The notes below the pieces were generated by a model. The model was not told the origin of the DNA. It ran no database searches and saw only the letters and a list, made by a program, of their open reading frames with translations. A program made the translations under genes and the position numbers. Below are positions 13,450 to 40,513 of a DNA stretch of 64,000 nucleotides, in pieces; position 1 is the stretch's first letter, and every line of letters begins with the position of its first letter. Origin of the DNA: Eubacteriales bacterium (GTDB taxonomy: Bacteria > Bacillota > Clostridia > Oscillospirales > CAG-272); the NCBI GenBank assembly GCA_045650025.1, contig JAZRQR010000157.1, positions 12,682-76,681 of the forward strand, in the 5' to 3' direction.

Positions 13450-13467
13450 GAAACACGAAAGCTTTCG

Positions 13468-13497: not shown

Positions 13498-13525
13498 GAA
13501 TAAGCGAGTGTGACTCGTAAGCATG

Positions 13526-14488: not shown

Positions 14489-14564
14489 ATGGCTCCCCCT
14501 TTTCAAACCTCTTCACATATATAGACGCTTTTTTTCGGAAAAAGTGCACCGATTTCGAAATTTT

Positions 14565-14596
14565 TTCAAAAAATCCCCGAACTTTTTTCGGGGATT
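14565..14596 (-). terminator. Rho-independent terminator of the YhaM-like gene
   Basis: AATCCCCGA...TCGGGGATT (14572-14596). On the minus strand it is followed by TTTTTTG. Confidence 0.75.
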
Positions 14597-14603
14597 TCTC
14601 TTA

Positions 14604-15872: not shown

Positions 15873-15895
15873 AGCTATCTCCACTCAAATCAGGA

Positions 15896-16765: not shown

Positions 16766-16850
16766 AATGTCCCCTTTTCGCCTTTTCTCTACATTAGTAT
16801 ATATTGCCGCGCCCAAAAAGTCAAGAGGTGTCGCGCAAAAACGCAAAATA

Positions 16851-16887
16851 AGGGCTGAACCTTGCGGTTCAGCCCTTGGTTTTTTTG
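16851..16887. terminator. Bidirectional-looking terminator after the giant surface-protein gene
   Basis: AGGGCTGAAC-cttgc-GGTTCAGCCCT (16851-16876). It is followed by TGGTTTTTTT on the plus strand and by TATTTTGCGTTTTTG on the minus strand. Confidence 0.7.
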
Positions 16888-16890
16888 TAA

Positions 16891-21744: not shown

Positions 21745-21899
21745 TGGTTTTTCCTCCAACTATAAAGATTTTTAAGACTCGGGATATTTCAAACCCCTGC
21801 CGGTTTTTCCGACTTGGGCGCCTTAACATTACATAATATACACGCACGGCTTCAACGCCCAAAAAGGCATAATTCACCCAATGCGCCTATATTACGAGT

Positions 21900-27410: not shown

Positions 27411-28355
27411 ATGTTTGAAAAGATTTTGGAGCAGATCCGCTGCCACGACACCATTATCCTTCACCGTCACACCAACCCCGACGGCGATGCAATGGGCAGC
27501 CAGATCGGGCTTAAGCACATCATCAAGGAAAACTTCGAGGGAAAGCGCGTGCTGATGGTGGGTGACCCTGCCAAGCGTTACGGCTTTATGGAGGACAGCG
27601 TGATGGACGAGGTGGCAGACGAGGACTACCGCGATGCCCTTGCCATTGTGCTGGATACCTCTGCAAAGGCGTTGATCAGCGACACGCGCTACACCACCGC
27701 GCACGTCTCTGCACGCATTGACCACCACCTGTTCTGCGAAACCATTGCAGATATTGAGGTGACCGACAACTCCTACGAGAGCTGCTGCGGTCTGATCACC
27801 GAATTCGCCATGGAGAGCGGACTTACCCTTTCCCCCTTGGCTGCAAAATCGCTTTACACGGGTATGATCACCGACTCGGGTCGTTTCCGCTACGACTCCA
27901 CCTCCGCCAACACCTTCCGTCTGGCTTCGTTCTTGAAGTCGCACCCCTTTGATACCAACGATATTTACCGCAATCTGTACGCAGATGACTTCTCTTTCAT
28001 CCGCCTGCGCGCCTCCTTTGTGCTGAAAATTCAGTTTACCGAGCACAAGGTGGGTTACATTTACACCACCAAAGAGGAGCTTGCCCAGACCGGCGCGGAC
28101 ACCTTTACCGTATCGCGCGGCATGGTCAACACCATGGGCGAGATTCGCGGCGTGGATATTTGGGTCAACTTTACCGAGACCGATGACGGCGTGCTTTGCG
28201 AGCTGCGCTCTTCCAAGTACAACATCAACGCTGTAGCAGTCAAGTACGGCGGCGGCGGTCACATCAAGGCAAGCGGCGCGACGGTGAAGGATCACGCAGA
28301 AGCAATGCAGATGCTGGCAGACCTTGACGCCATTGCGAGAGGAGGACAAAACTAA
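27411..28355 (+). CDS. DHH/DHHA1 phosphoesterase, NrnA-like (nanoRNase/pAp phosphatase; Pde2-type pApA/c-di-AMP activity not excluded), paralogue 1
   Basis: Track ORF of 314 aa with motifs ILHRHTNPDGDAMGS, VLDTS, RIDHH and GGGHIKASGA. The RBS is AAGGAG. Confidence 0.88.
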   Translation: MFEKILEQIRCHDTIILHRHTNPDGDAMGSQIGLKHIIKENFEGKRVLMVGDPAKRYGFMEDSVMDEVADEDYRDALAIVLDTSAKALISDTRYTTAHVSARIDHHLFCETIADIEVTDNSYESCCGLITEFAMESGLTLSPLAAKSLYTGMITDSGRFRYDSTSANTFRLASFLKSHPFDTNDIYRNLYADDFSFIRLRASFVLKIQFTEHKVGYIYTTKEELAQTGADTFTVSRGMVNTMGEIRGVDIWVNFTETDDGVLCELRSSKYNINAVAVKYGGGGHIKASGATVKDHAEAMQMLADLDAIARGGQN

Positions 28356-29326
28356 TGGAAATTTTACAGCAGATTTACGATAAGATCGCACAATACGACC
28401 GCATCATGCTGTTCCGCCACGTGCGCAACGACGGCGACTGCGTGGGCGCAACCAAGGGCCTTAAGGCGATTCTGACCCTGACCTGGCCCGAAAAGCAGGT
28501 ATATCTGATCGACGATGAGCATGCCGATTACTTAGAGTTCCTGGGGCCCGAGGATCAGCCCGTTGCCGACGAGGTGTACGAGGGCGCTTTGGGTATCGTG
28601 CTTGACACCGGCACAGACGCGCGTATTTCCAATAAGAAGTACGCACTTTGCAAGGAGCTGATCAAGATTGACCACCACATCAACATCTGTCCCTACGGCG
28701 ACCTTGCCTGGGTGGAGGAGGACGCCTCCTCTTGCTGCGAAATGGTGGCAAAATTCTACCTTGCAAACAAGGACAAGCTCAAGATCGACCGCGAGGCTGC
28801 AACCTACCTGTACACCGGCATTGTGACCGACTCGGGTCGCTTCCGTTACAACAGCACCTCGGGTGACACCATGCGCATAGCGGGCATGCTGCTGGATCTG
28901 GGCGTAGACACCGACGTGCTGTTTGCCAATCTGTACATGCAGGATCCGGAAAGCTTTAAGTTCAAGTCCTTTGTCTACAAGAACATGAAAATGACCCCCG
29001 CGGGCGTGGCGTATCTGTACGTCAGCCGCGCCACCATGGAAAAATACGGACTTTCGCACGAGCAGGCAGCCGCTGCCGTTTCGCTGATGGATTCGATCAA
29101 GGGCTCTTTGATCTGGCTGATCTTTATCGAGCACGAGACCGAGATCCGCGTGCGTCTGCGCTCCCGCTTTGCAACGGTCAATCAGATCGCCGAGCGCTAT
29201 AACGGCGGCGGTCACGCATGCGCAAGCGGCGCTACCGTGAAGTCCAGACGCGAGGCAAACAAGCTGATCAAGGAAGCTGACGCGGCACTTGCCAAGTACA
29301 AGGCGGAAAACGAGGGCTGGTTATGA
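28355..29326 (+). CDS. DHH/DHHA1 phosphoesterase, NrnA-like, paralogue 2
   Basis: Track ORF of 323 aa with motifs MLFRHVRNDGDCVGAT, VLDTG, KIDHH and GGGHACASGA. Its start overlaps the upstream stop (TAATG). Confidence 0.88.
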   Translation: MEILQQIYDKIAQYDRIMLFRHVRNDGDCVGATKGLKAILTLTWPEKQVYLIDDEHADYLEFLGPEDQPVADEVYEGALGIVLDTGTDARISNKKYALCKELIKIDHHINICPYGDLAWVEEDASSCCEMVAKFYLANKDKLKIDREAATYLYTGIVTDSGRFRYNSTSGDTMRIAGMLLDLGVDTDVLFANLYMQDPESFKFKSFVYKNMKMTPAGVAYLYVSRATMEKYGLSHEQAAAAVSLMDSIKGSLIWLIFIEHETEIRVRLRSRFATVNQIAERYNGGGHACASGATVKSRREANKLIKEADAALAKYKAENEGWL

Positions 29327-30048
29327 GAATTTTGATTACCAACGACGACGGCATCAAAGCCGAGGGACTTTTGGGACTGGTCAAGTGGGCTTGCAAGTAC
29401 GGTGAGGTCACAGTTTGCGCACCTCTGCACGAACAGAGCGGCAAAAGCCAGGGCATTGATATTTTCCACCCCATTGCGGTCAGCAAATACGATCTGATCG
29501 AGGGCGTTGAGGCATACTCTGTGGATTCCACCCCTGCCGATTGCGTGCGCTTTGGCATCATTGGGCTGGCAAAGCAGTACGATCTGGTGATTTCGGGCAT
29601 CAACCGCGGCTACAACATCGGTCAGGACATCGTGTACTCCGGCACGGTGGGCGCGGTCTACGAGGCAGCAGCACAGGGCGTGAGCGGTCTTGCCCTCTCC
29701 ACCTCCCCTTCTACCCTGCCCGGCGCTTTGGAGCAGCTGGACTACGTGTACAAGTTCATTGAGCGCAACAAGCTGTTCGCGCAAAACGACGTATACAACG
29801 TCAACATCCCCGAGAATCCGCAAGGCATTCGCATCACCCACCAGGGCAAGGCGAAATACTCGGACGAATGGGTGGACATGGGCAACGGCACCTACACGCA
29901 GGTTGGGCAGTTCATTTTTGAGAACACCAAGAACCTCGATCTGGACACCGACTGCGTCATGAACGGCTACGTTTCCATCACTCCCATGCAGACCGACCGC
30001 ACCAATCTCGCACTCTATAAAAAGCTTGCAGGATATCTCAATCAATAA
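29323..30048 (+). CDS. surE: 5'/3'-nucleotidase SurE
   Basis: Track ORF of 241 aa. It begins MRILITNDDGIKAEGL and contains SGINRGYNIGQDIVYSGTVGA. There is a 4-nt ATGA overlap with the upstream gene. Confidence 0.9.
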   Translation: MRILITNDDGIKAEGLLGLVKWACKYGEVTVCAPLHEQSGKSQGIDIFHPIAVSKYDLIEGVEAYSVDSTPADCVRFGIIGLAKQYDLVISGINRGYNIGQDIVYSGTVGAVYEAAAQGVSGLALSTSPSTLPGALEQLDYVYKFIERNKLFAQNDVYNVNIPENPQGIRITHQGKAKYSDEWVDMGNGTYTQVGQFIFENTKNLDLDTDCVMNGYVSITPMQTDRTNLALYKKLAGYLNQ

Positions 30049-30056
30049 ACAATAAA

Positions 30057-30091
30057 GAAAAGGCGTTGCACCGAGGTGCAACGCCTTTTTT
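30057..30091. terminator. Bidirectional terminator between convergent operons
   Basis: GGCGTTGCAC-cgag-GTGCAACGCC (30062-30085), flanked by an A-run on the left and TTTTTT on the right. Confidence 0.85.
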
Positions 30092-30116: not shown

Positions 30117-32525
30117 TTAAGCGAGGATATCAGTTACCAGAATGGTCAGATACTTGCCGCTGCTTGCAGTGCCGATGATGTAACCCTCAACGGAGAAGGT
30201 GTTACCTGCCTGTGCGTCAAGTGCTTCCTTGATCGCGCCTGCGGGATAAGAGAAGCTGCCTACGATGGTGCAGCCATCCATGGTGAAGTTGTAGTAGTTG
30301 CCGGAAACAGCAAGCGTACCGGTCACCTTTACGTAGATGGGAGCAATATCGGAAGCGGTTGCGTAAGCATCCAGCTCAGCTGCACTCAGCTCTACAGCGG
30401 TGGGAGTCTCGACGGTGCCGTTCTCCAGAACGGTAACCTCGGTGCCCTGACCGAACTGCTTTGCACCGCCGTAAACGGAGGTGGTACCGGAAACCTTCAC
30501 CACGTCACCAACGTTGCACGAAGGAGCGGAGCCAAGGTAGATCAGCATCATGCCGGTCTTATCGGAGATCAGCAGGCTTCTGCCGGTGATACCAACAACA
30601 GTACCAACAGTCTCGTACTTGCCGTTCTCGCTTGCCTTGATCTCCTCAATGGTGGGGTAATCGGGCTTGCCCTCGGAAACTACAACGAGCTGCAGGGGGA
30701 ACTGGCTGACACCGGTGTTCTCAGCGCTGATGTAGCTGGTCTTGGAACCGCTGACGGTATCGAAGTTGCTGTAAGTGCCCAGGTAGTACTGGCTCTCCTC
30801 GCCCTCAACGTTGGTTACCCATGCGTTGATATCAGCGTTGTAAACGTAAACGGAAAGTGCGGTATCCTGATAGAATACGGCGATCTTGCCACCGTCGTTC
30901 TTGGTGATGTTGATGTACTTCTTAGCGCCGTCTACCATGGTGTAGAAGGAGTAGCCATCGCCGTTTGCCTCAGCATAAACGTCGATCGCCTCTGCAGCAG
31001 CCTTGGAGGTGATCAGGTATCTGTCACCGGTTACACCGCCGGATACGAATACGCCGTAGCCGTTGGTGCCCTGGTACATATAGAGCTTGTATGCAACTTC
31101 AGCCTCGGGAGTGGTTACGGGCTCAACGGTAAAGTTGGTAGCAACCAGCATAACCTCAAACTCGACGGTCTCGGTAGCATCACCCAGAGTAACGGTTGCA
31201 GTCAGCTTGATGGTGGTGGTCTCTGCAGGCATGGTCAGAGTCAGCTTGCCGTCTGCAATCTTAGCAAACTCGCTGTCGGAAGCCCAAGTGATGGAAACTT
31301 CGGGATAGGTTGTGCCTGCTACGGGCAGATCGATCTCAGCGCCCTCGGTGAAGGTGCTCTCGAAGGTCAGGCTATCCTTTTCCAGGGTAACCTTTTCAGC
31401 ATCGGATCTTTCGGGAAGTGCGTAGTTGTAGAAGCAATCTACGGAAGTGGGAATGATGTAGGGTGCGCCGCTGTAGGTGATCAGAATACCGGTAACGTCA
31501 GCGGTGTAGCCGTACTTTTCAGCGTGTGCTGCATCGATGGTTGCCTTGTCGTCAGCCTTCAGGGTAGTGGGGAAATCGGTTACGTAGGTTCTTACGTAGC
31601 CCTGAACGCCATTCAGCTCGAAGAACAGGTACTGGCTGGTTGCAGTTGCAAGCTCCTGACCGCCAATGGTAACGCCCTTAACGGTTACAGGCATACCAAC
31701 AAGCTCATTGAAGTTGGTGCCTTCAACCCACTTATCGGTAATGTCAACGGGAGCGAAGTCCTTCTTTTCAGTGTTTACAACAGTGGGAATACCGCCCTTG
31801 ATCTCCATCATGCCGCTGTAAGGAGCAGCAGGACCGGAAACGCGAACGGTCATACCGAGCTCGATGCCGAGATCAGCAACGGGGTCAACGTCCATCTGGT
31901 AGGAGTAGTAGCCGCCAAAGCCGCTCTCATCCAAGAGGAACAGGTGGTTTCTGGTGTTGCCTGCAGCCTTGGAGTTGATAGCAACAACGATACCCTGAAT
32001 GATCAGGTTGTCGCCTTCCTTAGCAGCCTGGTACTCTTCCCAAGTAGTAACCTTGAACTTGGGAACAGTGCGGTTGAATTCCTTGGTAACGGTGTTGCCT
32101 TCTGCATCAGCAACGGTTGCAGTCAGCACGTAAGCAATGTCCTCGAAGGACTCGTCGGGAACGTCAACGGTAACGGTGCCGTCCTCGGCAACGGTAAGAG
32201 TGATCTTATCGGTGTTAACAGCCCAGGTAACAGCGTAGCTTACGCCGCCAACCTTCACGCTGGAAATCAGGGTGTAGTCAGCAGCGGTAACGGTGGTGTC
32301 CTTGTACAGCTGACGAACGTACTCAGCTGCGTTCTCAAGGTCAGTGGGCTCTTGAGCGCCGGGCTCCTCGGTGGTGACTTCCTCAGAAGACTCGGGAGTC
32401 TCGGTCGTCTCTTCAGCAGCGGTAGTGTCATCAGTTCCCTGCTGCTCGCCGTTGTCACAAGCAACGAACAGAGCCAGAGAGCAAACAAGAGCTGCTGCGA
32501 GCAAAAGCATTAAAATCTTTTTCAT
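30117..32525 (-). CDS. Large surface lipoprotein with repeated OB-fold-like modules (putative nucleic-acid-binding, no catalytic motif seen)
   Basis: Track ORF of 802 aa with a lipobox (MKKILMLLLAAALVCSLALFVACDNG). Modules include GNLIIQGIVVAINS...HLFLLDESGFGGYYSY...GMTVRVSG...YSGMMEIKG and YETVGTVVGITGRSLLISDKTGMMLIYL...GDVVKVSGTTSVYGGAKQF. These resemble the OB barrels of extracellular nucleases. Confidence 0.7.
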   Translation of the reverse strand: MKKILMLLLAAALVCSLALFVACDNGEQQGTDDTTAAEETTETPESSEEVTTEEPGAQEPTDLENAAEYVRQLYKDTTVTAADYTLISSVKVGGVSYAVTWAVNTDKITLTVAEDGTVTVDVPDESFEDIAYVLTATVADAEGNTVTKEFNRTVPKFKVTTWEEYQAAKEGDNLIIQGIVVAINSKAAGNTRNHLFLLDESGFGGYYSYQMDVDPVADLGIELGMTVRVSGPAAPYSGMMEIKGGIPTVVNTEKKDFAPVDITDKWVEGTNFNELVGMPVTVKGVTIGGQELATATSQYLFFELNGVQGYVRTYVTDFPTTLKADDKATIDAAHAEKYGYTADVTGILITYSGAPYIIPTSVDCFYNYALPERSDAEKVTLEKDSLTFESTFTEGAEIDLPVAGTTYPEVSITWASDSEFAKIADGKLTLTMPAETTTIKLTATVTLGDATETVEFEVMLVATNFTVEPVTTPEAEVAYKLYMYQGTNGYGVFVSGGVTGDRYLITSKAAAEAIDVYAEANGDGYSFYTMVDGAKKYINITKNDGGKIAVFYQDTALSVYVYNADINAWVTNVEGEESQYYLGTYSNFDTVSGSKTSYISAENTGVSQFPLQLVVVSEGKPDYPTIEEIKASENGKYETVGTVVGITGRSLLISDKTGMMLIYLGSAPSCNVGDVVKVSGTTSVYGGAKQFGQGTEVTVLENGTVETPTAVELSAAELDAYATASDIAPIYVKVTGTLAVSGNYYNFTMDGCTIVGSFSYPAGAIKEALDAQAGNTFSVEGYIIGTASSGKYLTILVTDILA

Positions 32526-32568
32526 ATTAGCTCCTTATTTTTATCAAAAAAAATTGTGGATACTGCCA

Positions 32569-34014
32569 TTAGCCGATGATGATATCATCGATTGCAAACA
32601 CTCTGACCTGGTACTGACCGTCGTAGGAATCCACGATGCCTCTTACCGTGATCTTGGTGCCTGCGGGGAAAATGTCCTGGGTAACGATATTACCCTGTGC
32701 GTCCAGCAGCACCTCGGTTCTGATGACGATGGTGGTACCGTCCTCTGCCGTACAGGTCAGAGACATGGCACCCTTATCGTCGCTGGTCTCGGAGGTGGTG
32801 GTGTACACGCTTTGTACGGTCAGATCCTTGACCGTTACGGTGCTGTAGTGTGCCAGCTCGCCGTACTTGAACTCGGTGGGAGTGCTGATCTCGTTGCCAT
32901 CTGCATCCTGCGTAATGACATCCAGCGTCAGCTTACCGCTGACGATGTCCGAAGCTGCTACTTCACTGTAGCTTGCGCTGTAGCCTTCCTCGAGCTTATG
33001 GATACCGTCCTTGGAGAGTGCTCCGTTGGGGTCCATCATATCCACGCTGTACTTGATATTGGAAATCTGCCAGGTGCCGCCCAGCTCGTAATACTGCAGC
33101 GTACCCACCATCATCACGCGGTTGCCAATGCTCAGTGCTTGCATGACGTTGCCGGGGGTGTTGTAGCCGCAGAATACCTGCATACCGTAGTACATATCGG
33201 TCTCTGCATCGTACTCCTCCAGGTAAACGGTTGCACCGCTTCTCTTAACGACCACTGCCTCAAAACGAACCAACTGATCCTTGTAAGGCTCATAGTTGAG
33301 CTTGAGCTCCTTTAAGGTTACGTTCTGTGCACCGCCGTAATAGAACTCGGGGTCCTTATCCTTGGAGAACACGTAAAGCTTGAACTGCTTTGCCTGGTTG
33401 AGCGCACCCATGGTGTAATCGGAGTACGCATTGTCGGCTGCATTCGAGCCAAACGCAAGACCCTGCTGCAAAATCTCCAGGTTGAGGTTGCGGTACTCGG
33501 TCATTTCTGCCGTCTTGTACCATACCCAAACCAGGTATCTGCCGCCGGTGGAATCGGCATTCCAGCTTGCGTTATCGGATTCAATGTAAATAGAGGTTGC
33601 CTTGGAAAGGGTTTCCTTAGTATAGTTGGAAGCCTTTTTGCCCCAAGGCTCGATGATGCCGGTGGATTCGGGGGTGTTGATACCAAGGTATCTTGCCTTG
33701 AGAATATCACCGGGCACAATGCCTGCGGGTACGTTGAAGTGGGTGGTATCACCGTCAATGAACGCGTGAACCGTGACTTCTACGTTAAGTCTGCCGGAGT
33801 TGGGATCAAACTTGAGCTGAGAAGCAAAGTCTACAAACTCGGGCTCGGGAGCTTGGGTCGTTTCGGAGGGGTCGGTAGTTTCGAGGGTCGTCTCGGTGCT
33901 GTCCGCAGCCGTGGTCTCCTCGGTCGTGCCGCCCTCGGTATCGCAGGCTGCAAAGCAGCCTGCGATCATGCCAAAAGCGAGCAGAACGATCAATAATTTA
34001 GCAAAATTCTTCAT
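32569..34014 (-). CDS. Thermonuclease (staphylococcal-nuclease, SNase) family lipoprotein with C-terminal OB-like domains
   Basis: Track ORF of 481 aa with a lipobox (LLAFGMIAGCFAAC). The SNase signature appears in order: FIDGDTTHF, ARYLGINTPES, EPWGKKASNYTKE, GGRYLVWVWY, NLEILQQGLA. The C-terminus has LVRFEAVVVKRSGATVYLEE...GNRVMMVGTLQYY. Confidence 0.85.
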   Translation of the reverse strand: MKNFAKLLIVLLAFGMIAGCFAACDTEGGTTEETTAADSTETTLETTDPSETTQAPEPEFVDFASQLKFDPNSGRLNVEVTVHAFIDGDTTHFNVPAGIVPGDILKARYLGINTPESTGIIEPWGKKASNYTKETLSKATSIYIESDNASWNADSTGGRYLVWVWYKTAEMTEYRNLNLEILQQGLAFGSNAADNAYSDYTMGALNQAKQFKLYVFSKDKDPEFYYGGAQNVTLKELKLNYEPYKDQLVRFEAVVVKRSGATVYLEEYDAETDMYYGMQVFCGYNTPGNVMQALSIGNRVMMVGTLQYYELGGTWQISNIKYSVDMMDPNGALSKDGIHKLEEGYSASYSEVAASDIVSGKLTLDVITQDADGNEISTPTEFKYGELAHYSTVTVKDLTVQSVYTTTSETSDDKGAMSLTCTAEDGTTIVIRTEVLLDAQGNIVTQDIFPAGTKITVRGIVDSYDGQYQVRVFAIDDIIIG

Positions 34015-34063
34015 CGTTTTCTCTGCTTGTTATGATTTTGTAATAATGGATCTTTGGGAAGGA

Positions 34064-35563
34064 TTACTGAGCGTTCTTACACTCGGTAACTGCCTTTGCA
34101 AACGCCTCGTCCAGCATAGCGTCTACATCGGTTGCGGGAGTGGTGAAGCAGTACTGCATCAGCTCGCCAACCTTGTCACGTGCAACGGAAGAGCCGTTGA
34201 ATGCGGGAGATACGAAGTAAGCGTTGGACATATCTCTACCAACCTTAACAGCCAGAGCCTGGATGTTGTCGCCGCCGTCTGCATTGTCAAGGAAGTTCTT
34301 GTATGCGGGGATCTGGTCAACGCTCTTGATAACGGGCATGTAACCGGAGATCATGGAGAATGCTGCCTGGAACTCGGGGTTGGTGGTCAGGAACTCAACG
34401 AACAGCCAGGAAGCGATGACTTCCTGCTTGTTGTCGGACTCAAAGATGCACAGAGAGGGACCCTGGGAGATAGCCTTGGGGTTCTCTGCATTGACCTGAG
34501 GAATGGGAGCGATGCCTACCTCAAACGCATAACCGGTATCGGTAGCCTCGGGACGCTGGTGGATGGAACCACCGGTGGAACCGATGGACATATAGCTGTT
34601 CTTATCGGTCAGCTCGGTGAACAAGCCCGAGGTGTAACCGCCGTACAGCTCCTGGGTGGTCAGGTAGCCCTTCTCGTACCAGCCTCTGAACATCTTAACG
34701 AATACCTTGTTCTGGGGATGGTCGAACTGGTAGTTGTTACCTCTCTCAGTGGAGGTGTAGGGAGAGCCGTACTGCTCGGTCATGGTGATGAACCAGTTAG
34801 CCTCGGAGTCGTAACCAAGGGGAATGCAATCGGGATCGATCTCAAGGATCTTCTGGCAAAGAGCCTCCATTTCCTTCCAGGTGGTAGGAACCTGCAGGTT
34901 GTGCTGCTCGAAGAAGGTCTTGTTGTAGTACAGAACCTCTGTGGACTTGGACATAGGCAGGGTGTACATGGTGCCTGCGTTGTCAAATACTGCACCCTCT
35001 GCGTAGAAGCCGGGGATGAAGTCAGCGATCTGCTCTGCGGTCAGACCCAGAACAGTGGTGTTGCCCTTTGCATCGGTGATCTCGATGGTGCTGTTGATGA
35101 AGCTGTTGAGCGGTACTACTGCCTTTGCTACGTTGTACAGAGCAACGTGGTCGGGATAGCAGTATGCGATGTTAGGCTGGTTGCCTGCGGTCAGCTCGGT
35201 CTTGATCTGGTCGCGAACCTCGTCGTAACCGCCAACCTGTGCATGCTCTACGTGGATGTTGGGGTACATTTCGTTGAACTTTGCAATGTACTGATCCAAA
35301 ATGCCCTGGTAGGTTGCATTCATGGTGTGGGAGAAGGTGATGGTAACTTCGCTGCCGTCGTATGCAATAACGTCATACTCCAGGGGCTTTGCCTGGGTGT
35401 TGCCGTTATCTGCGGAGCCGCTTTCGCCTTCAGGCTGAGTCTCAGCCGCTTCGGTGTCAGTGGGACGCTCGGTAGTGGACTCGTGACGGTTGTCGCAGCT
35501 TACAAGTGCGAACATGCCAAGACACAGAGTCAACATCAGAGCAAACGCAAGAATTCTTTTCAT
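34064..35563 (-). CDS. ABC transporter substrate-binding lipoprotein (family-1/CUT1-type, 499 aa)
   Basis: Track ORF with a lipobox (LCLGMFALVSCDN). Its size and alpha/beta pattern are typical of extracellular solute-binding protein family 1. Confidence 0.8.
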   Translation of the reverse strand: MKRILAFALMLTLCLGMFALVSCDNRHESTTERPTDTEAAETQPEGESGSADNGNTQAKPLEYDVIAYDGSEVTITFSHTMNATYQGILDQYIAKFNEMYPNIHVEHAQVGGYDEVRDQIKTELTAGNQPNIAYCYPDHVALYNVAKAVVPLNSFINSTIEITDAKGNTTVLGLTAEQIADFIPGFYAEGAVFDNAGTMYTLPMSKSTEVLYYNKTFFEQHNLQVPTTWKEMEALCQKILEIDPDCIPLGYDSEANWFITMTEQYGSPYTSTERGNNYQFDHPQNKVFVKMFRGWYEKGYLTTQELYGGYTSGLFTELTDKNSYMSIGSTGGSIHQRPEATDTGYAFEVGIAPIPQVNAENPKAISQGPSLCIFESDNKQEVIASWLFVEFLTTNPEFQAAFSMISGYMPVIKSVDQIPAYKNFLDNADGGDNIQALAVKVGRDMSNAYFVSPAFNGSSVARDKVGELMQYCFTTPATDVDAMLDEAFAKAVTECKNAQ

Positions 35564-35634
35564 GGTTTGTTTCCTTTCGTTATTTGTGTTATTTTTATTT
35601 TATTTATAGACTTTACTGGTCAATAAATCGGTCA

Positions 35635-36543
35635 TTAACCCTTGATGCCGCTCTTGGATACGCCCTTCATAATATACTTACGGAGGAAGATAAATACCAA
35701 GAACAGAGGGATCGAAACAACGGTAACCGCAGCCATCTGCACGGGGATATCCGCCTCACCCGAGCCTGCATCCGTAAACGCGGAGCGCAAGCCGTTGGTG
35801 ATCAGCCAGAAATCTCTGTGTGCAACCAGTCTGGGCCAGACGTAGGAGTTCCAAGCACCCATCATTTTCAGAATGGTGATGGAGATCAGCGTAGGCAGGG
35901 ACAGCGGGATCATCACCTTGCACAGGTACTTGAAATCGCTGGTACCGTCTACCTTAGCTGCCAGGTAAAGCTCATTGGGGATCTGCATGAAGTTCTGTCT
36001 GAGCAGGTAGATATAGAAGATACTGACCAAGAACGGAACGATCAGTACCGAATAACCTGCCAGCCAGTGATCGTTGTTTACCCAGTCAAATTTGTCAACC
36101 GTGATATAGTTGGTAATGGTAAACAGCTCACCGGGGATCATCATGGTGCCAAGCAGCGCAGCAAACAGCGCGTTCTTGCCCTTGAACTCCAGACGTGCAA
36201 ACGCAAATGCCGTGATAATGGTGATCACCAGCGACAAAAGCGTGGACACAACACCGACGATTACGGTGTTCTTGAACAGCTTGAGCAGCTCTGCCTTGGT
36301 AAATGCCTGCAGATAGTTGCTCCAGATGATCTGCTTGGGGAACAGCGTGGGCACGGAGAGCTTGTACTCTGCCAGCGACTTGAGCGAGGAAATGATCATC
36401 CAGTAGAACGGGAAGATTACGATGATCGCCATGATCACCAAAAACAGATACAGGAAAAACTGCGAGATGATCTTAACGACCTTTTGTCTGCCAGTTACCT
36501 TTTGGAGGTCCTTTTCGGACAATACCTTGAATTGATTTGCCAT
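35635..36543 (-). CDS. ABC transporter permease (MalG/CUT1-type)
   Basis: Track ORF of 302 aa with six TM segments and an EAA-like loop (LYLAAKVDGTSDFKYLCKVMIPLSLP). Confidence 0.88.
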   Translation of the reverse strand: MANQFKVLSEKDLQKVTGRQKVVKIISQFFLYLFLVIMAIIVIFPFYWMIISSLKSLAEYKLSVPTLFPKQIIWSNYLQAFTKAELLKLFKNTVIVGVVSTLLSLVITIITAFAFARLEFKGKNALFAALLGTMMIPGELFTITNYITVDKFDWVNNDHWLAGYSVLIVPFLVSIFYIYLLRQNFMQIPNELYLAAKVDGTSDFKYLCKVMIPLSLPTLISITILKMMGAWNSYVWPRLVAHRDFWLITNGLRSAFTDAGSGEADIPVQMAAVTVVSIPLFLVFIFLRKYIMKGVSKSGIKG

Positions 36544-36559
36544 GATAGTACCTCCTTAC

Positions 36560-37639
36560 TTAATAATGTGTCTTCTTCTTGCTGACCGCGAGGTTAACAA
36601 GCGTTACAGCAAAGATGAGCAGGAACAGCAAGAGCGCGGCTGCGGAAGCAATACCCTCTGCGTTACCCAGGTTGTCGTAAATATAACCAACCATGGTCTG
36701 CAATCTGGGCGTACCAACCGATGCTCCGGGAGGCTGCATGCCTTCGCCGAAGATACCGACGATGCTGGTGTACTCCTTAAATCCGCCGATAAATCCGGTA
36801 ATGACCACGTATGCGATCATGGGAGAGAGCAGCGGAACGGTAATACGGGTAAATACTCTCCACTTGGGAGTCGAGTCAACCTTAGCAGCATCGTAATACT
36901 GCTTGTTGACGCTCTGCAAGCCGCCCAGCAGGATCAGGATCTTGAAAGGCAGTGCGTTCCATACGATATAAACGATCATGACAGCCATGTTCGCCCAGTA
37001 GGTCGAGCCCTGGTTGATCCAGTTGATGGGGTCCATACCGAACCAGCCGATTACGGTATTGATGATACCGACCGAGGTGCTGGCGGCGATATCGGTGGTG
37101 TTGACACCAACGATATTAAACATTGCTGCAAATACCATACCGATTGCGATCGAGTTGGTCACGTACGGCAAGAAGAAGATAGTCTGCAGCAGTCTGCGCA
37201 GGGGCTTGATCGCATTCAGACATACCGCGATCAGCAGCGCAAGGAAGGTTGAGAGCGGTACGGTCAGCACGCAAAGCAGCACCGTGTTTTGCATGATCAA
37301 CCAGAAACCGTCGTAATTGATAACCGCCTTGAAGTTTGCCAGACCGAATTCATAATCGATCTCACCCGTCAGGCTTTCCGAAATCTTGTAGGTCGAATAA
37401 CCGCCCCACTTGACAGGCACTTCTTTTTTGTGAACGACGTCTACCTTGTCCCCATTTTCATCGATAATGGTAACGATCTCTTCCTGAATTTCAAATTCCA
37501 CCGGCAGATCCGGATCCCAATACACTGTAAACGCCATGCGCAAGGTATTGACGATCGGCCATGCAGTGAAGATCAGCAACAGAATGATCGCGGGAAGCAG
37601 ATAGAGCCACGCTTTCCATTGTTGTTTACTGTCAACCAT
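36560..37639 (-). CDS. ABC transporter permease (MalF/CUT1-type) with an enlarged first extracytoplasmic loop
   Basis: Track ORF 36560..37720. The start is moved to the ATG at 37639 (MVDSKQQWKAWLYLLPAIILLL), 6 nt after GAGGAGGG. The EAA-like loop is YYDAAKVDSTPKWRVFTRITVPLLSP. Confidence 0.85.
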   Translation of the reverse strand: MVDSKQQWKAWLYLLPAIILLLIFTAWPIVNTLRMAFTVYWDPDLPVEFEIQEEIVTIIDENGDKVDVVHKKEVPVKWGGYSTYKISESLTGEIDYEFGLANFKAVINYDGFWLIMQNTVLLCVLTVPLSTFLALLIAVCLNAIKPLRRLLQTIFFLPYVTNSIAIGMVFAAMFNIVGVNTTDIAASTSVGIINTVIGWFGMDPINWINQGSTYWANMAVMIVYIVWNALPFKILILLGGLQSVNKQYYDAAKVDSTPKWRVFTRITVPLLSPMIAYVVITGFIGGFKEYTSIVGIFGEGMQPPGASVGTPRLQTMVGYIYDNLGNAEGIASAAALLLFLLIFAVTLVNLAVSKKKTHY

Positions 37640-37649
37640 GATGCCCTCC

Positions 37650-38744
37650 TCAGAAATAAATTCTGTTCTCGGTCTCGGCGTCGAAAATAAACACCTTATG
37701 AGGCTTGAGCGAGTAGGCAACGGATGCCTTGGAAAGGTCTACCTTATAGTCAGAGTTAATGATGGCACGAACCAGAGGATTTACAGAGGAGGAATGCTCA
37801 CAAACCACGCTCATGTCTCTGCCCATGACCTCAACGTTCTTGAGATCACATACCATAGGACCGTTCTCCTCGGGGATAAAGCCCTCGGGACGAATGCCCA
37901 CGATGACCTCACGGTTATCTACGCCGGGCACATCCAGCACAGCGTTCTCACCCATGAACAGCTTGCCGTTCTCTACTCTGCCCTTGAATACGTTGATGGG
38001 AGGAGTACCCAAAAACTTTGCAACGAACAGGTTAGCGGGGTTATCGTACACCTCCTGAGGTGCACCGATCTGCTGTACCACACCAAGCTTCATAACAACG
38101 ATCATATCGGAAATGGACATTGCCTCTTCCTGGTCGTGCGTTACGAATACGGTGGTAATGCCGGTCTCCTTCTGGATGCGGCGGATCTCTTCTCTGGTCT
38201 GCAGACGCAGTCTTGCATCCAGGTTGGAAAGCGGCTCGTCCAAAAGCAGTACGCGAGGCATCTTGACCAGTGCTCTTGCAATGGCAACTCTCTGCTGCTG
38301 ACCGCCCGACATTTCGCTGGGCTTACGATCCATCAGATCCTCGATCTGCACCAGCTTAGCTGCCTGGTATGCACGCTCCAGCATGGCTTCCTTGGTCATC
38401 TTGTCCTTGCCCTTGAGGTTCTGCAGGGGGAACATAATGTTCTGCTTCACCGTCATGTGGGGGTATAGTGCGTAGTTCTGGAACACCAGACCAACGCCGC
38501 GGTTTTCGGGAGAAAGCTTAGTCACATCCTCGTCTCCAAAGAAAATCTGACCGCCGGAGGGCTTTTGCAGACCACTGATCATGTACAGCGTGGTACTCTT
38601 ACCGCAACCGGAAGGACCAAGCAAACCAACCAGCTTACCGTCCGGGATGGTAAAGGTAAAATCGTTGACCGCGATGACCTCACCGCCCGCCTTTTTATTG
38701 CGGCTGGGGAAGATTTTCGTTAGATTTCGTAATTCGACTTTCAT
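37650..38744 (-). CDS. ABC transporter ATP-binding protein (MalK/MsmX/UgpC-type)
   Basis: Track ORF of 364 aa. Walker A is GPSGCGKST, the signature is LSGGQQQRVAIARAL, and Walker B is LLLDEPLSNLD. A C-terminal MalK-like regulatory domain follows. Confidence 0.92.
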   Translation of the reverse strand: MKVELRNLTKIFPSRNKKAGGEVIAVNDFTFTIPDGKLVGLLGPSGCGKSTTLYMISGLQKPSGGQIFFGDEDVTKLSPENRGVGLVFQNYALYPHMTVKQNIMFPLQNLKGKDKMTKEAMLERAYQAAKLVQIEDLMDRKPSEMSGGQQQRVAIARALVKMPRVLLLDEPLSNLDARLRLQTREEIRRIQKETGITTVFVTHDQEEAMSISDMIVVMKLGVVQQIGAPQEVYDNPANLFVAKFLGTPPINVFKGRVENGKLFMGENAVLDVPGVDNREVIVGIRPEGFIPEENGPMVCDLKNVEVMGRDMSVVCEHSSSVNPLVRAIINSDYKVDLSKASVAYSLKPHKVFIFDAETENRIYF

Positions 38745-38788: not shown

Positions 38789-39580
38789 TTAATAAGGGGA
38801 ATTTGCTACGTTTTCCTCGTGCAGCTTCTTTTTATAATCCAGCAGTGCCTGCTCGCTCTCAAAGACCATCTGCGTGGACAGATCCACCACCACGGTATCC
38901 GAGATCAGATCGTGCACGGCAGAGTTGGTGCGCGTTGCGCATACCGCCACGACCTCCAGCACGACAAGACCGAGGATCACAACAGGCCCCACAATGCCAA
39001 CCAGCCCAAAGAACATCATAATCAGCACAAACAAGGGCAACACGGTCTCAATGGTATATTTGCCGAACAGCATACGCACAAACAGGACAAAGGGCGAAGC
39101 CTTGACCGCATTGGTGCGGATGACGCCCAGTCCAAACAGCTTTTTGCCAAGCGTCTGTCCGTTTTTGAACAGCAGCATGGGCACAGCAAACTCCAACAGT
39201 GCGTACGCCACAAAGGTGCTGACAAGGCAGATCACCAGCGAATAATTCAACAAAAGGAACAATGCCGTCTGGGCATACTGATCCTCGCTGAGCAGCTCGT
39301 CCATTCGGTGATAAATCTCCTTTTGCCCTTCGGACATATCGTCATAGGCAAGCGTCAGATCCAGCTTGCAGCTCTCACCGTGCTTTTGCTCGTATTCCGA
39401 TTCCGCCTGCGCAATGAGTGCGGCTTGCCGCGCTTCAATCACGCCAATGTGCGTATCGTAATGCAGAACCGTTGAGAGCAGCGCGGCGATTCCCACCACG
39501 ACGACCATCATGATCACAACGTCGAAAAGAAACGCAGATGCCCTTTTCCAAAGGCTTGCCTTTTGCAGATCGTATATCAT
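38789..39580 (-). CDS. RDD-family membrane protein
   Basis: Track ORF 38789..39634. The start is moved to MIYDLQKASLWKRASAFLFDVVIMMVVV (39580), preceded by AAAGGAG. It ends only 44 nt upstream of the ABC ATPase gene. Confidence 0.65.
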   Translation of the reverse strand: MIYDLQKASLWKRASAFLFDVVIMMVVVVGIAALLSTVLHYDTHIGVIEARQAALIAQAESEYEQKHGESCKLDLTLAYDDMSEGQKEIYHRMDELLSEDQYAQTALFLLLNYSLVICLVSTFVAYALLEFAVPMLLFKNGQTLGKKLFGLGVIRTNAVKASPFVLFVRMLFGKYTIETVLPLFVLIMMFFGLVGIVGPVVILGLVVLEVVAVCATRTNSAVHDLISDTVVVDLSTQMVFESEQALLDYKKKLHEENVANSPY

Positions 39581-39799
39581 ACTCGCGCTCCTTTTTTTCA
39601 GATTCCGGTATGTAAAAACGGTAGAAGGCCACACATACCCATACTACAATATCATACCACATTCCTTGACAAAAGTCTACACTTTATTTTAATATTATCT
39701 GCCTTTTTTTCACTTTTGGTGAAATCGACAAATTTTTTTCATCGGTTTCCGTAAATTATTTTAACATACATCACTATTATATATACAAACACCGTAAAA

Positions 39800-39836
39800 C
39801 ACGCCGACAGCCCCAAAAAACAGGACTGTCGGCGTG
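39800..39836 (-). terminator. Terminator of the dus-GH-like-HAD unit
   Basis: CACGCCGACAG-15 nt-CTGTCGGCGTG (39800-39836). On the minus strand it is followed by TTTTACGGTGTTTG. Confidence 0.7.
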
Positions 39837-39847: not shown

Positions 39848-40513
39848 TTATTCTTGTGCAAAATTTTCTATGATCTCCAAAAGCTGCGCGGGCGAGGATG
39901 CCACCACCTCGGCGCCGCGTGCGTACAGCACCTCGGCAGGGCGGTAACCCCAGCATACGTCAATGGCGTGCATGCCTGCATTGAGTGCGGTTTTCACGTC
40001 TACGTCGCTGTCTCCGATGTACGCGCATTCGTGCGGCTGCGCCCCCATTTTGGCTGCCAGCATCAACGGCACGGCAGGGTCGGGCTTGGGTGCGCGATCG
40101 GTACGAAATCCCTCGGCGGCAAGAAACGTTCCTTCCGAGAACAGCTGCGCCACCAGCGCCTTGACAAATTCATCCTGCTTGTTGGAGTTGACCGCTATGG
40201 GGTACTTCCCTTTCAGGTAATCGATCAGCTCGGAGATGCCGTCGTAGGTGGTATCGGTATGCATATAAACCTGTGCGTAATGACGGTTGTACGCAGCGTA
40301 CAGCGCGTCAACGCGCGCATCGTCCTCGCGGTACTCCGGGGGCAACGCATATTTTGCGTAATCGCGCGCGCCCATGTTGATAAACTCATATACCTGCGCC
40401 TCGCCGATCGCGGGATAGCCCAGCTCCGCAAGCGCCAGATTCATACCCTCGGCAATGGCGGGCAGCGTGTGCGCCAGCGTGCCATCCAAATCAAAAATCA
40501 ATGCTTTTAACAT
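39848..40513 (-). CDS. HAD-superfamily hydrolase (phosphoglycolate-phosphatase-like)
   Basis: Track ORF of 221 aa. Motif I is IFDLDGTLAHT. Later motifs are VNSNK and YIGDSDVD. Confidence 0.85.
   Translation of the reverse strand: MLKALIFDLDGTLAHTLPAIAEGMNLALAELGYPAIGEAQVYEFINMGARDYAKYALPPEYREDDARVDALYAAYNRHYAQVYMHTDTTYDGISELIDYLKGKYPIAVNSNKQDEFVKALVAQLFSEGTFLAAEGFRTDRAPKPDPAVPLMLAAKMGAQPHECAYIGDSDVDVKTALNAGMHAIDVCWGYRPAEVLYARGAEVVASSPAQLLEIIENFAQE

Follow-up and report, generated by a model that had tools for sequence, protein, structure and literature searches.

A staphylococcal-nuclease-type lipoprotein and a large modular lipoprotein as fixed partners of a Ugp-like ABC importer in gut Clostridia

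The staphylococcal-nuclease-type (SNase) lipoprotein and the large lipoprotein encoded downstream of it are fixed partners of an ABC importer in an operon of an uncultured gut Clostridia bacterium, and we consider it highly probable that this operon serves nucleic-acid scavenging in some form. The operon lies in a window of 64,000 nt, i.e. the whole stretch of DNA that was analysed, and its six-gene core (ATPase to 802-aa lipoprotein) is entirely on the minus strand. The features are as follows.

~39800..39835, minus strand, intrinsic terminator of the upstream HAD gene (hairpin followed by GUUUU)
39651..39679, minus strand, promoter-like site upstream of the RDD gene (TAGACT, 17-nt spacer, TATGAT with TG extension)
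38789..39580, minus strand, RDD-family membrane protein, 263 aa from an ATG with an AAGGAG ribosome-binding site
37650..38744, minus strand, ABC ATPase of MalK/UgpC type, 364 aa, with C-terminal regulatory OB domain
36560..37639, minus strand, permease 1, MalF/UgpA-like, 359 aa counted from ATG
35635..36543, minus strand, permease 2, UgpE/MalG-like, 302 aa
34064..35563, minus strand, substrate-binding lipoprotein (SBP), 499 aa
32569..34014, minus strand, SNase lipoprotein, 481 aa
30117..32525, minus strand, modular lipoprotein, 802 aa, non-catalytic
30056..30091, bidirectional intrinsic terminator with a 16-bp stem, common to the operon and the convergent SurE operon

From the ATPase gene to the gene of the 802-aa protein the intergenic gaps are 10, 16, 71, 49 and 43 nt, and each gene has a Shine-Dalgarno-like purine run on its 5' side, that of the SNase gene being the weakest. 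We recomputed the coordinates and gaps that the first-pass annotation had given for these six same-strand genes, and all match exactly. Its statement that no hairpin precedes the bidirectional terminator was also borne out: the gene junctions hold no stable hairpin (strongest fold -5.3 kcal/mol), and the terminator at 30056-30091 has T-runs on both strands and a folding energy of -29.3 kcal/mol. The terminator scan returned 7 sites, fewer than the 9.3 expected from shuffles, and the candidates within the operon (34407-34426 and 37184-37201) are weak and lie inside coding sequence. The six-gene arrangement is as that annotation had described, but the operon probably starts one gene earlier. The RDD gene is separated from the ATPase gene by 44 nt without hairpin or terminator, and it is preceded by a putative promoter, matched in a consensus scan, and by the strong HAD-gene terminator (-32.3 kcal/mol, z -6.1 vs shuffles), which bounds the transcription unit on its 5' side. 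The operon thus probably comprises seven genes, with the RDD gene first. We found no nucleotide-sensing riboswitch at the operon, and no such regulator either.

We surveyed the locus in 80 species-level genomes picked via the nuclease, and the counts cover loci with enough flank. The SBP is kept upstream of the nuclease in 73/73 testable loci, permease 2 in 70/70, permease 1 in 67/67 and the ATPase gene in 61/61. The RDD gene (Pfam RDD, E 1.8e-11) is directly upstream in 59/59, and this linkage suggests that its product is an accessory membrane subunit. On the 3' side of the SNase gene, a gene bearing the first domain of the 802-aa protein (D1, see below) is found in nearly all loci. The linkage holds in independent genomes at nuclease identities as low as 46%, two loci picked via the SBP instead of the nuclease have the same gene order with the nuclease present, and a MAG filed under Mollicutes (locus L077) carries the full operon. 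Conserved in every one of the 59-73 testable loci, in other species, the gene order is more than chance. Conservation of the linkage had been proposed as a check of the initial interpretation, and nuclease and importer are indeed kept together in all testable loci, with the D1-bearing gene next to them in nearly all.

The same loci bear on a reading in which the importer takes up glycans and the nuclease and modular lipoprotein serve biofilm-matrix DNA remodelling, escape from DNA traps or adhesion. The CUT1 type of the transporter, the Ig-like and beta-trefoil (lectin-type) modules of the 802-aa protein and glycoside hydrolase genes near one related locus (L082) would fit this reading, but these hydrolase genes are not a conserved feature of the loci, and no conserved glycan-degrading genes were found alongside the operon in the surveyed loci. 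In none of 73 loci does the SBP occur without the nuclease, and the two SBP-picked loci carry the nuclease as well. Oligosaccharide binders also score under phosphodiester binders in the SBP profile comparison given below, and we regard glycan import as very improbable.

The nuclease consists of a lipobox (IAGC), a linker, an SNase domain at residues ~80-220 and OB-like domains at ~230-345 and ~385-478; the lipobox cysteines of the SBP and the 802-aa protein are in LVSC and FVAC, respectively. The five thermonuclease motifs quoted by the first-pass annotation are all present in the 481-aa translation, and Pfam SNase scores 39.4 bits against a threshold of 21. In an alignment with S. aureus nuclease, D21, R35, T41, E43 and R87 are retained, and their equivalents are invariant in 19 homologues; as judged from these alignments, the catalytic set is intact. 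The S. aureus Ca ligand D40 is replaced by an Asn that is invariant throughout the nuclease family in the homologue alignment, and because of this replacement the activity or metal preference may differ. PF01336 OB matches of the homologues fall at residues 410-477, and the first OB-like domain (230-345) is a prediction from sequence pattern.

The 802-aa protein was divided into five domains.

D1, residues 60-158, Ig-like
D2, residues 159-372, tandem OB
D3, residues 373-462, aBig_2 (Pfam match)
D4, residues 463-617, beta-trefoil
D5, residues 618-802, OB-like C-terminus

The AF2 model has a pLDDT of ~90 over residues 60-615, the D4 model is a beta-trefoil with a pLDDT of 92, and Foldseek gave matches to HIN-200 tandem-OB and LysRS. 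PF01336 matches of the homologues fall at 174-253 and 699-786, and the N-terminal region of ExeM/NucH matches residues 661-745. Profile searches, models and Foldseek revealed no catalytic domain in the protein. Some homologues contain a PLD-type nuclease domain (P0151), a link between this family of modules and nucleic acids. The OB folds and the lack of a catalytic domain are thus as initially described, with two Ig-like domains and one beta-trefoil in addition; the protein being a mosaic, the proposed refutation by Ig or carbohydrate-binding modules gives a mixed outcome. Since beta-trefoils often serve as lectins, the Ig-like and beta-trefoil modules of the model may indicate that the protein acts partly in glycan or cell-surface attachment.

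The transporter had been described as a generic MalFGK oligosaccharide type. Its CUT1 class holds, but the Ugp/phosphodiester branch fits best. The ATPase has ABC_tran, OB_MalK and CysA_C_terminal domains in the profile search, and among the NCBIfam models UgpC fits it best, at 348 bits against a cutoff of 432. Permease 1 (BPD_transp_1, E 5.6e-19), with a loop of ~75 aa after its first transmembrane segment, is under the NCBIfam MalF/UgpA cutoffs (UgpA 44 vs 335), and permease 2, also a BPD_transp_1 match, is best matched by UgpE (88.6 bits vs cutoff 297). The SBP matches Pfam SBP_bac_8 and SBP_bac_1, with UgpB as best NCBIfam match (64.6 vs cutoff 411). It had been called unusually large, which did not hold: the LVSC lipobox is followed by a low-complexity linker of ~40 aa and then by a normal-sized cluster-D SBP. 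Compared by profile with solved structures, it scores 84 bits with the Thermus 7c0f series, 64 with E. coli UgpB and at most 50 with sugar binders, a moderate gap between phosphodiester and sugar binders; the matches to the two best relatives are of low identity and partial alignment. The PDB label of 7c0f reads only "sugar-binding protein", and we take the series to be the Thermus dinucleotide-binding U3GBP; a U3G (dinucleotide)-binding protein of Thermus thermophilus was reportedly described by Chandravanshi et al. in FEBS J in 2021. The residues mutated in the series are partly matched in the SBP, a Tyr being Leu at one site and a Thr being Ser at another. The Thermus protein has been grouped with UgpB and a GPC binder as phosphate-recognising CUT1 members (PMC12718374), and it and UgpB are the best solved relatives of our SBP. 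On these sequence comparisons, we place the SBP in the phosphodiester-binding CUT1 branch (U3GBP/UgpB-like) and not among oligosaccharide binders, and for the transporter as a whole the Ugp/phosphodiester branch is the best assignment. A further, weak match of the SBP is to the P68 lipoprotein family of mycoplasmas (E 4e-8).

The same matches could indicate a Ugp-type organophosphate importer for glycerol-3-phosphate or glycerophosphodiesters, with the nuclease co-expressed only through a joint phosphate-scavenging response. UgpC, UgpE and UgpB are the best NCBIfam matches, UgpB is the second-best solved relative, and the mycoplasma counterparts are annotated UgpC/A/E. However, the equivalog cutoffs of UgpB, UgpE, UgpA and UgpC are all missed by wide margins, and in a comparison by eye with the E. 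coli sequence the SBP appears to lack the first Trp of the UgpB glycerol clamp. The loci that were read contain no glycerophosphodiesterase gene, and the obligatory partners in every locus are nucleic-acid proteins, namely the nuclease and the OB lipoprotein. We therefore judge this alternative to be quite unlikely.

The genes beyond the operon concern the fate of the cleavage products.

29323..30048, plus strand, SurE 5'/3'-nucleotidase, convergent neighbour (Pfam SurE, E 1e-49)
28355..29326, plus strand, NrnA-like DHH/DHHA1 phosphoesterase, copy 2 (DHH and DHHA1)
27411..28355, plus strand, NrnA-like DHH/DHHA1 phosphoesterase, copy 1 (DHH and DHHA1)
22638..24212, plus strand, surface-exposed lipoprotein of the 5'-nucleotidase / 2',3'-cyclic phosphodiesterase family (Metallophos and 5_nucleotid_C)

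SurE is above its TIGR00087 cutoff (161.9 vs 135.1 bits), has no signal peptide and is predicted to be cytoplasmic. The NrnA-like copies are ~36% identical, the stop of copy 1 overlapping the start of copy 2, and score 228 (copy 1) and 245 bits (copy 2, below the 350 cutoff) with NCBIfam NrnA; for copy 2, the NrnA structure of B. subtilis (5j21) is a match at E 1e-66. Copy 1 was found in 44/83 loci, and SurE with both NrnA-like genes lies within 10 kb downstream in 33 of the 43 loci with enough flank. This adjacency could also be inherited synteny of housekeeping enzymes. The nucleotidase-family lipoprotein has a lipobox and an acidic linker, with NCBIfam YfkN/UshA-type matches below cutoffs. 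It could strip phosphate from the products while they are still extracellular, and nucleosides would then be the likelier cargo.

In that case the importer would carry dephosphorylated end products (nucleosides or (deoxy)ribose), surface nucleotidases finishing the digestion outside and the nuclease and OB lipoprotein merely feeding the pathway. CUT1 systems are mostly sugar transporters, the SBP matches sugar binders too, if more weakly, and the nucleotidase-family lipoprotein, 6 kb off, has counterparts in 6/80 loci at no more than 10 kb from the operon. Its association is loose, however, with varying positions and absence from the 10-kb flanks in most loci, and no phosphatase gene is part of the operon in the surveyed loci. 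The solved proteins nearest to the SBP have phosphate-containing ligands, and SurE and NrnA, whose substrates are phosphorylated nucleotides, would be superfluous for nucleosides. Those nucleoside ABC importers that have been characterised rely on binding proteins of the BMP/PnrA type instead. Dephosphorylated cargo thus appears rather unlikely.

We moderately favour the reading that the operon and its neighbours, a probable seven-gene operon with a convergent three-gene cytoplasmic finishing set, form a surface-to-cytoplasm system that forages extracellular nucleic acid and imports phosphorylated products. The 802-aa lipoprotein, with at least three OB folds, Ig-like spacers and a beta-trefoil, would tether extracellular DNA/RNA at the membrane surface. 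The SNase lipoprotein with its two C-terminal OB-like domains would cut the polymer, by the known chemistry of its family, into 3'-phosphorylated mono-, di- and short oligonucleotides. The SBP would capture these products for import by the Ugp-like permeases and ATPase; for the cargo itself to be phosphorylated (3'-NMP, di- or oligonucleotide) we see roughly even chances. In the cytoplasm, the NrnA-like pair and SurE, whose identities and conserved neighbourhood are given above, would convert the imported cargo into mononucleotides, nucleosides and phosphate.

This architecture agrees with that of the P80-SNase-UgpCAE operons of mycoplasmas. The genes for an SBP-like lipoprotein, an SNase lipoprotein and an ABC transporter share a transcript in M. 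agalactiae, and uptake of nucleotide precursors was proposed in that study (PMC3585158). A role in nucleic-acid precursor acquisition has been proposed for mycoplasma SNase-linked ABC operons (PMC3585158, PMC9740415, PMC3178575), and the M. pneumoniae transporter adjoining the nuclease Mpn133 is annotated UgpC/A/E (PMC3178575). The mycoplasma precedent named by the first-pass annotation is thus confirmed (PMC3585158, PMC9740415). The counterparts are M. agalactiae MAG_5030(P80)-MAG_5040-MAG_5050/5060/5070, M. hyopneumoniae Mhp379, M. pneumoniae Mpn133 with UgpC/A/E (MPN134-136) and M. hominis MHO_0730. Both groups have an SNase surface lipoprotein by an SBP-like lipoprotein, a Ugp-like ATPase and two permeases, but SBP and SNase precede the transporter genes in mycoplasmas and come after them in Clostridia, where an RDD protein, two nuclease OB domains and the large OB/Ig/beta-trefoil lipoprotein are added. 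The hosts also differ, being walled free-living gut Clostridia here and genome-reduced parasites there. To our knowledge, import of nucleic-acid precursors by the mycoplasma operons has long been proposed and never shown.

Nucleic-acid degradation loci are also known from the Izemoplasma-like wall-less bacteria Xianfuyuplasma coldseepsis zrk13 and Hujiaoplasma nucleasis zrk29, with a thermonuclease or extracellular RNase, NrnA, phosphohydrolases and ABC transporters; DNA/RNA induces the loci, and the bacteria were shown to grow on nucleic acids (PMC8397711, PMC10470597). Compared by description, they share thermonuclease, NrnA and ABC transporters with our locus and differ in EddB, phosphate transporters and other nucleases; for their ABC system, neither a Ugp-like type nor strict coupling to one SNase lipoprotein is stated. 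B. subtilis YhcR, reportedly (Oussenko et al. 2004) a wall-anchored OB-OB-SNase-5'-nucleotidase nuclease yielding 3'-nucleotides, is likewise a surface-attached SNase-family nuclease of a Firmicute with tRNA_anti-type OB domains, but its OB domains are N-terminal, its nucleotidase is fused, and it is sortase-anchored and not in a transporter operon. BMP/PnrA-type importers such as the mycoplasma nucleoside importer P48 (PMC12892991) also take up nucleic-acid breakdown products via a lipoprotein binding protein; they differ in Bmp SBP fold, RbsC-like permeases, nucleoside cargo and the lack of a coupled nuclease.

Given the mycoplasma operons, the Izemoplasma-like loci (PMC8397711, PMC10470597) and the Mollicutes MAG, the earlier claim that such a module is new for Firmicutes was overstated. 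The observation itself is confirmed, and its interpretation as a whole is partly supported: the Clostridia operon probably works by capturing extracellular DNA/RNA, cutting it and importing the fragments, in line with the proposal for mycoplasmas.

The six same-strand genes that the first-pass annotation had placed between 38744 and 30117 are borne out by the ORF table, gaps included, and the gene of an RDD-family membrane protein was found immediately upstream of them.

Genes of the probable operon (from the ATPase gene onwards as in the ORF table)
39580 (ATG) to 38789 (stop), minus strand: RDD-family membrane-protein gene, 44 nt upstream of the ATPase gene
37650-38744, minus strand: ATPase
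36560-37639, minus strand: permease 1, whose internal ATG start gives the 10-nt gap
35635-36543, minus strand: permease 2
34064-35563, minus strand: substrate-binding lipoprotein (SBP), 499 aa
32569-34014, minus strand: SNase lipoprotein, 481 aa
30117-32525, minus strand: 802-aa lipoprotein

The gaps of the six-gene run measure 10, 16, 71, 49 and 43 nt. All five end with a purine run resembling a Shine-Dalgarno sequence, and no stable fold is formed by any of them. In the terminator scan, sites were no more numerous than in shuffled sequence, and the bidirectional hairpin at 30056-30091 was the sole strong site. Gap folding and scan thus agree with the earlier observation that no hairpin precedes this terminator. 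Short gaps, ribosome-binding sites, lack of intergenic hairpins and terminators at both ends are all features that would be expected of a co-transcribed unit. Because no hairpin separates the RDD gene from the nearby ATPase gene, a promoter-like site with an extended -10 lies upstream of the RDD gene at 39651-39679, and the preceding HAD gene has a strong terminator upstream of the RDD gene (-32 kcal/mol, z -6.1), the transcription unit most likely comprises seven genes, from 39580 down to 30117.

The Rfam scan gave no riboswitch at the operon, its only match being a purine riboswitch 20 kb away. This aptamer (RF00167, 10799-10855, minus strand; 39.9 bits against a gathering score of 37) has directly downstream of it an ORF of roughly 590 aa (8994-10766, minus strand) with a PRK/uridine-kinase-family domain in its C-terminal half, an unusual target for purine riboswitch control. 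Just upstream of the operon's upstream terminator, the HAD phosphatase gene (39848-40513, minus strand) follows a gene whose 864-aa product is secreted, has a membrane anchor at its C-terminus and gives no Pfam or NCBIfam match (40517-43111, minus strand). Both are conserved in the closest relatives only.

In order to assess conservation, one genome per species was scanned for relatives of the nuclease, which yielded at least 582 loci. We fetched the best 80 of these with 10-kb flanks and searched them by tblastn with the window proteins. The order RDD-ATPase-permease-permease-SBP-SNase was seen in every locus with enough upstream sequence among these best 80 of at least 582, at nuclease identities as low as 46%.

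Presence of operon genes in testable loci (best 80 of at least 582)
SBP: 73 of 73
Permease 2: 70 of 70
Permease 1: 67 of 67
ATPase: 61 of 61
RDD: 59 of 59

The metagenome-assembled genomes (MAGs) carry the labels Clostridia, Eubacteriales, Oscillospiraceae, Acutalibacteraceae, Lachnospiraceae and Bacilli, and the full operon is also present in one MAG filed under Mollicutes (locus L077). Since the 80 loci had been chosen through the nuclease, we performed a reverse test starting from SBP homologues; both of the two on long contigs lie in the same arrangement beside an SNase gene. The linkage is therefore kept in all testable loci of related genomes, and SBP orthologues were not found in glycan loci lacking nucleases, as the two SBP-selected loci each carry the SNase gene. 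The SBP homologue search returned no named distant or mycoplasma relatives, the top 120 matches all being close orthologues (identity at least 59%).

The profile check that had been suggested for transporter and nuclease gave the anticipated Pfam families: ABC_tran with OB_MalK, two BPD_transp_1, SBP_bac_8/1 and SNase. The ATPase scores 128.9 bits for ABC_tran, 32 bits for OB_MalK (cutoff 27) and 33.2 bits for CysA_C_terminal, which makes it a predicted MalK/UgpC-type ATPase with a C-terminal regulatory OB domain. The permeases match BPD_transp_1 at 69 and 47 bits (MalF/UgpA-like and MalG/UgpE-like), and the cluster-D SBP matches SBP_bac_8 at 129 and SBP_bac_1 at 85 bits. With ATPase, two permeases and a cluster-D SBP, the predicted importer belongs to the CUT1 type (TC 3.A.1.1). 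In NCBIfam the top-scoring models are UgpC, UgpE and UgpB, and MalF for permease 1. We rejected an orthologue of the Ugp sn-glycerol-3-phosphate transporter (UgpBAEC), because the scores are far under all four equivalog cutoffs (UgpB 64.6 against 411, UgpA 44.4 against 335, UgpE 88.6 against 297, UgpC 348 against 432).

The SBP was compared to solved structures by single-sequence and family-profile searches. Its top PDB match in both is the 7c0f series, entries labelled sugar-binding protein that comprise a Thermus-like protein and many point mutants. The profile gives this series 84 bits (E 4e-23), E. coli UgpB 64 bits (E about 5e-17) and oligosaccharide binders 50 bits or less. We provisionally take the series to be T. 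thermophilus TTHA0379, binding protein for the dinucleotide uridylyl-3'-5'-phosphoguanosine (U3G), and it was reportedly as a binder of this dinucleotide that Chandravanshi et al. described TTHA0379 in FEBS J in 2021. A U3G-binding protein is indeed on record (PMC12718374), grouped there with UgpB and the GPC binder of mycobacteria among CUT1 members that recognise phosphate. This grouping, together with the profile ranking, supports a placement of the SBP in the phosphodiester branch, from which we infer that its ligand may be a phosphate-bearing nucleic-acid product. Of three positions mutated in the 7c0f series, the window SBP has Leu for Tyr and Ser for Thr, and the third is ambiguously aligned, so that putative ligand residues are not reliably readable from this alignment. 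The first-pass annotation had described a sugar/oligosaccharide-type importer with an unusually large binding protein. The CUT1 assignment stands, although the narrower Ugp/phosphodiester placement replaces the generic oligosaccharide one, and the size claim was abandoned since a linker accounts for the surplus residues. SBP, SNase protein and 802-aa protein all have a signal peptide and lipobox cysteine followed by a Thr/Glu/Asp-rich linker.

The five thermonuclease motifs quoted earlier are all in the translation of the SNase gene, and PF00565 matches at 39.4 bits against a gathering score of 21. Structures of S. aureus nuclease align over residues 81-220 (E about 4e-4). Among the catalytic and Ca-binding residues, the equivalents of D21, R35, T41, E43 and R87 are D89, R108, T114, E116 and R159, invariant in 19 homologues, as is Asn113 at the D40 position, an exchange that may affect activity or the choice of metal. 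We would expect an active enzyme from this sequence; SNase-family enzymes leave 3'-phosphates. Two OB-like domains follow C-terminally, the first read only from sequence pattern and the second (410-477) matched by PF01336 in homologues. When the C-terminal half of the nuclease was compared to the 802-aa protein by BLASTP, no significant similarity emerged (best E 0.025), which argues that the OB domains of the two proteins are not recent duplicates.

For the 802-aa protein, neither Pfam nor NCBIfam gave a catalytic domain, and a PDB sequence search returned nothing significant. An AlphaFold2 model built on 42 sequences has pLDDT of about 90 for residues 60-615 and is poor for 620-802.

Predicted domains of the 802-aa protein
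D1, 60-158: Ig-like sandwich (AlphaFold2 model)
D2, 159-372: two OB-topology units, each beta1-3 / helix / beta4-5 (AlphaFold2 model)
D3, 373-462: aBig_2 'atrophied Ig' domain (Pfam)
D4, 463-617: beta-trefoil (separate model, pLDDT 92)
D5, 618-802: OB-like secondary structure

Foldseek places about 215 columns of D2 on HIN-200 tandem-OB DNA-binding domains (prob 1.0, TM 0.4) and also matches LysRS, and the PF01336 match of the homologue P0229 falls on residues 174-253. D4 is structurally closest to FGF-1, Kunitz inhibitors, botulinum HA33 and ricin-B-type lectins (TM 0.5-0.6). PF01336 matches of three homologues fall on residues 699-786, in D5. These matches are above or near the cutoff in homologues, while the window 802-aa protein and nuclease themselves stay under the Pfam threshold. 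Taken together, the 802-aa protein and the nuclease C-terminus have predicted OB-fold modules of the tRNA_anti-codon (PF01336) type. The earlier description of at least two OB modules and no catalytic motif was right on the evidence of model, Foldseek, homologues and domain databases. Its alternative of Ig/carbohydrate modules instead of OB folds gave a mixed outcome, because Ig-like modules and a lectin-type fold are present in addition to the OB folds.

Residues 661-745 match positions 37-119 of the 546-position ExeM/NucH model at 30.9 bits against a cutoff of 300. A cryptic ExeM/NucH nuclease was rejected, since the match is limited to the non-catalytic N-terminal region and Pfam gives no catalytic domain. 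Full-length Foldseek returned mostly long multi-Ig chains (arabinanase AbnA, contactins, cadherins) at TM 0.16 or less; we discarded these as artefacts, the model being of the beads-on-a-string type, and limited the use of Foldseek to domain-sized matches for this protein.

We aligned homologues of the 802-aa protein, derived domain HMMs from the alignment and scanned every ORF of the loci with them. The SNase gene is followed directly, in nearly all loci, by a gene for a large protein (about 400-2500 aa) starting with D1; about half of the loci have the D2-D3 pair, and most have D4 repeats, from one to more than five. One homologue (P0151) has a fused PLD-type nuclease domain. Given the constant D1 and the variable composition behind it, the partner appears conserved as a family yet modular and fast-evolving, and by sequence comparison the putative capture protein is repeatedly rebuilt among relatives. 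Some relatives have a D1-bearing lipoprotein of 2100-2500 aa (11281-18915 of locus L079 and 11401-17778 of locus L080), with at least four D4-type beta-trefoil repeats and without the tandem-OB D2.

Three genes whose stops overlap starts, coding for two DHH/DHHA1 proteins and SurE, are convergent to the operon and use the same terminator. Both DHH proteins are NrnA-like, having DHH and DHHA1, with a match to B. subtilis NrnA (5j21) at E 1e-66 and NCBIfam NrnA scores of 228 and 245 bits against a cutoff of 350. SurE, a 5'/3'-nucleotidase, passes TIGR00087. Signal peptides are absent from all three. Of the 43 loci with enough flank (best 80 of at least 582), 33 have SurE no more than 10 kb downstream, and it is also present in both SBP-selected loci. 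NrnA enzymes degrade 2-5-mer oligonucleotides and pAp (PMC9757072, PMC5593865), and a tandem DHH pair in M. bovis is a source of the NMPs required for growth in cell culture (PMC7373297). The SurE and NrnA activities are those that imported 3'-phosphorylated short products would need. This is supportive and not decisive, because all three are housekeeping enzymes. The two NrnA-like genes (27411-29326, plus strand) are paralogues of about 36% identity, the stop codon of the first overlapping the start codon of the second, and resemble the M. bovis tandem Mbov_0327/0328, in which a nanoRNase is paired with a cyclic-dinucleotide phosphodiesterase (PMC7373297).

A less likely alternative is that the products are dephosphorylated outside the cell before import, since a surface-exposed lipoprotein encoded at 22638-24212 (plus strand) belongs to the 5'-nucleotidase / cyclic phosphodiesterase family. 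It has Metallophos and 5'-nucleotidase C-terminal domains (YfkN/UshA-like) and an acidic Thr/Asp linker of the same kind as the operon lipoproteins. In 6 of the 80 loci (best 80 of at least 582), a lipoprotein of this type is encoded no more than 10 kb from the operon, its position varying between loci. Whether the importer cargo is phosphorylated is, in our estimate, about an even call.

Beside the DHH genes, an 879-aa ORF (24352-26991, minus strand) has ECF-type sigma-70 regions 2 and 4 at its start, then about 690 further residues with a weak DUF3108-like match. It appears as a sigma factor fused to a long extension, and is conserved beside the DHH genes in the closest relatives only. A 1573-aa ORF (17044-21765, plus strand), with no Pfam match at E 1e-4, is almost wholly overlapped by a 1622-aa ORF on the opposite strand, and either strand may be the coding one.

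Operons of like layout have already been described in mycoplasmas, and the novelty claim of the first-pass annotation is lowered for this reason. In M. agalactiae, P80 (MAG_5030), the SNase lipoprotein MAG_5040, an ABC ATPase and two permeases are co-transcribed, an arrangement kept throughout the M. hominis group, and the authors proposed uptake of nucleotide precursors (PMC3585158). A review adds Mhp379, Mpn133, MHO_0730 and MbovNase to the same kind (PMC9740415), and the M. pneumoniae transporter genes are annotated UgpC/A/E (PMC3178575). Izemoplasma-like bacteria have DNA/RNA-degradation loci with thermonuclease, NrnA and ABC transporters, and their growth on nucleic acids was demonstrated (PMC8397711, PMC10470597). 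In both the mycoplasma and the window operon, genes for an SNase lipoprotein, an SBP-like lipoprotein, two permeases and a Ugp-like ATPase lie together on one strand, and the window SBP weakly matches the mycoplasma P68-lipoprotein family (E 4e-8). Given these precedents, the window system probably works like the known mycoplasma kind and is related to it, as judged from gene layout and published descriptions. We found no description of this operon in the literature on Clostridia or the gut, nor reports of a strictly conserved operon in hundreds of Clostridia species, an RDD partner of the SNase-ABC operon, a D1-bearing OB/Ig/beta-trefoil lipoprotein family, or a link between the operon SBP and the dinucleotide/Ugp branch.

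The best explanation is a pathway that captures, cuts, imports and finishes extracellular nucleic acid. The core of the first-pass interpretation is retained, with operon boundaries, domain picture of the 802-aa protein and transporter placement corrected. That the operon serves nucleic-acid scavenging in general is a reading we hold with considerable confidence. Textbook bacterial salvage has nucleotides losing their phosphate outside and then entering as nucleosides or bases. Uptake of nucleoside monophosphates by Mollicutes was reportedly observed by Youil and Finch in 1988, and an SNase-linked Ugp-like transporter is so far just a candidate for it. We advance a joint reading more tentatively, as one with rather less than even prospects: the mycoplasma nuclease-ABC system may have its ancestral, free-living form in this operon, and/or the operon may be the first identifiable import route for phosphorylated nucleotides or short oligonucleotides, not nucleosides, in walled Firmicutes. 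The Ugp/U3G-binder-type SBP would then be an oligonucleotide receptor, and the invariant D1 and always-linked RDD protein would act as hitherto unrecognised accessory subunits, bringing capture, cutting and import together in one surface machine.

Relatives of the nuclease in at least 582 species-level genomes, mostly of uncultured gut and rumen Clostridia, provide a large comparative data set and non-parasitic hosts in which the cargo question becomes testable. They offer two strictly or nearly strictly linked parts for study, namely the RDD protein and the D1-bearing modular lipoprotein with its OB and beta-trefoil repeats. This distribution suggests that extracellular nucleic acid is routinely harvested as a nutrient in gut ecosystems, and the operon may be a broad and tractable entry to whether and how Firmicutes and Mollicutes import phosphorylated nucleotides or oligonucleotides.
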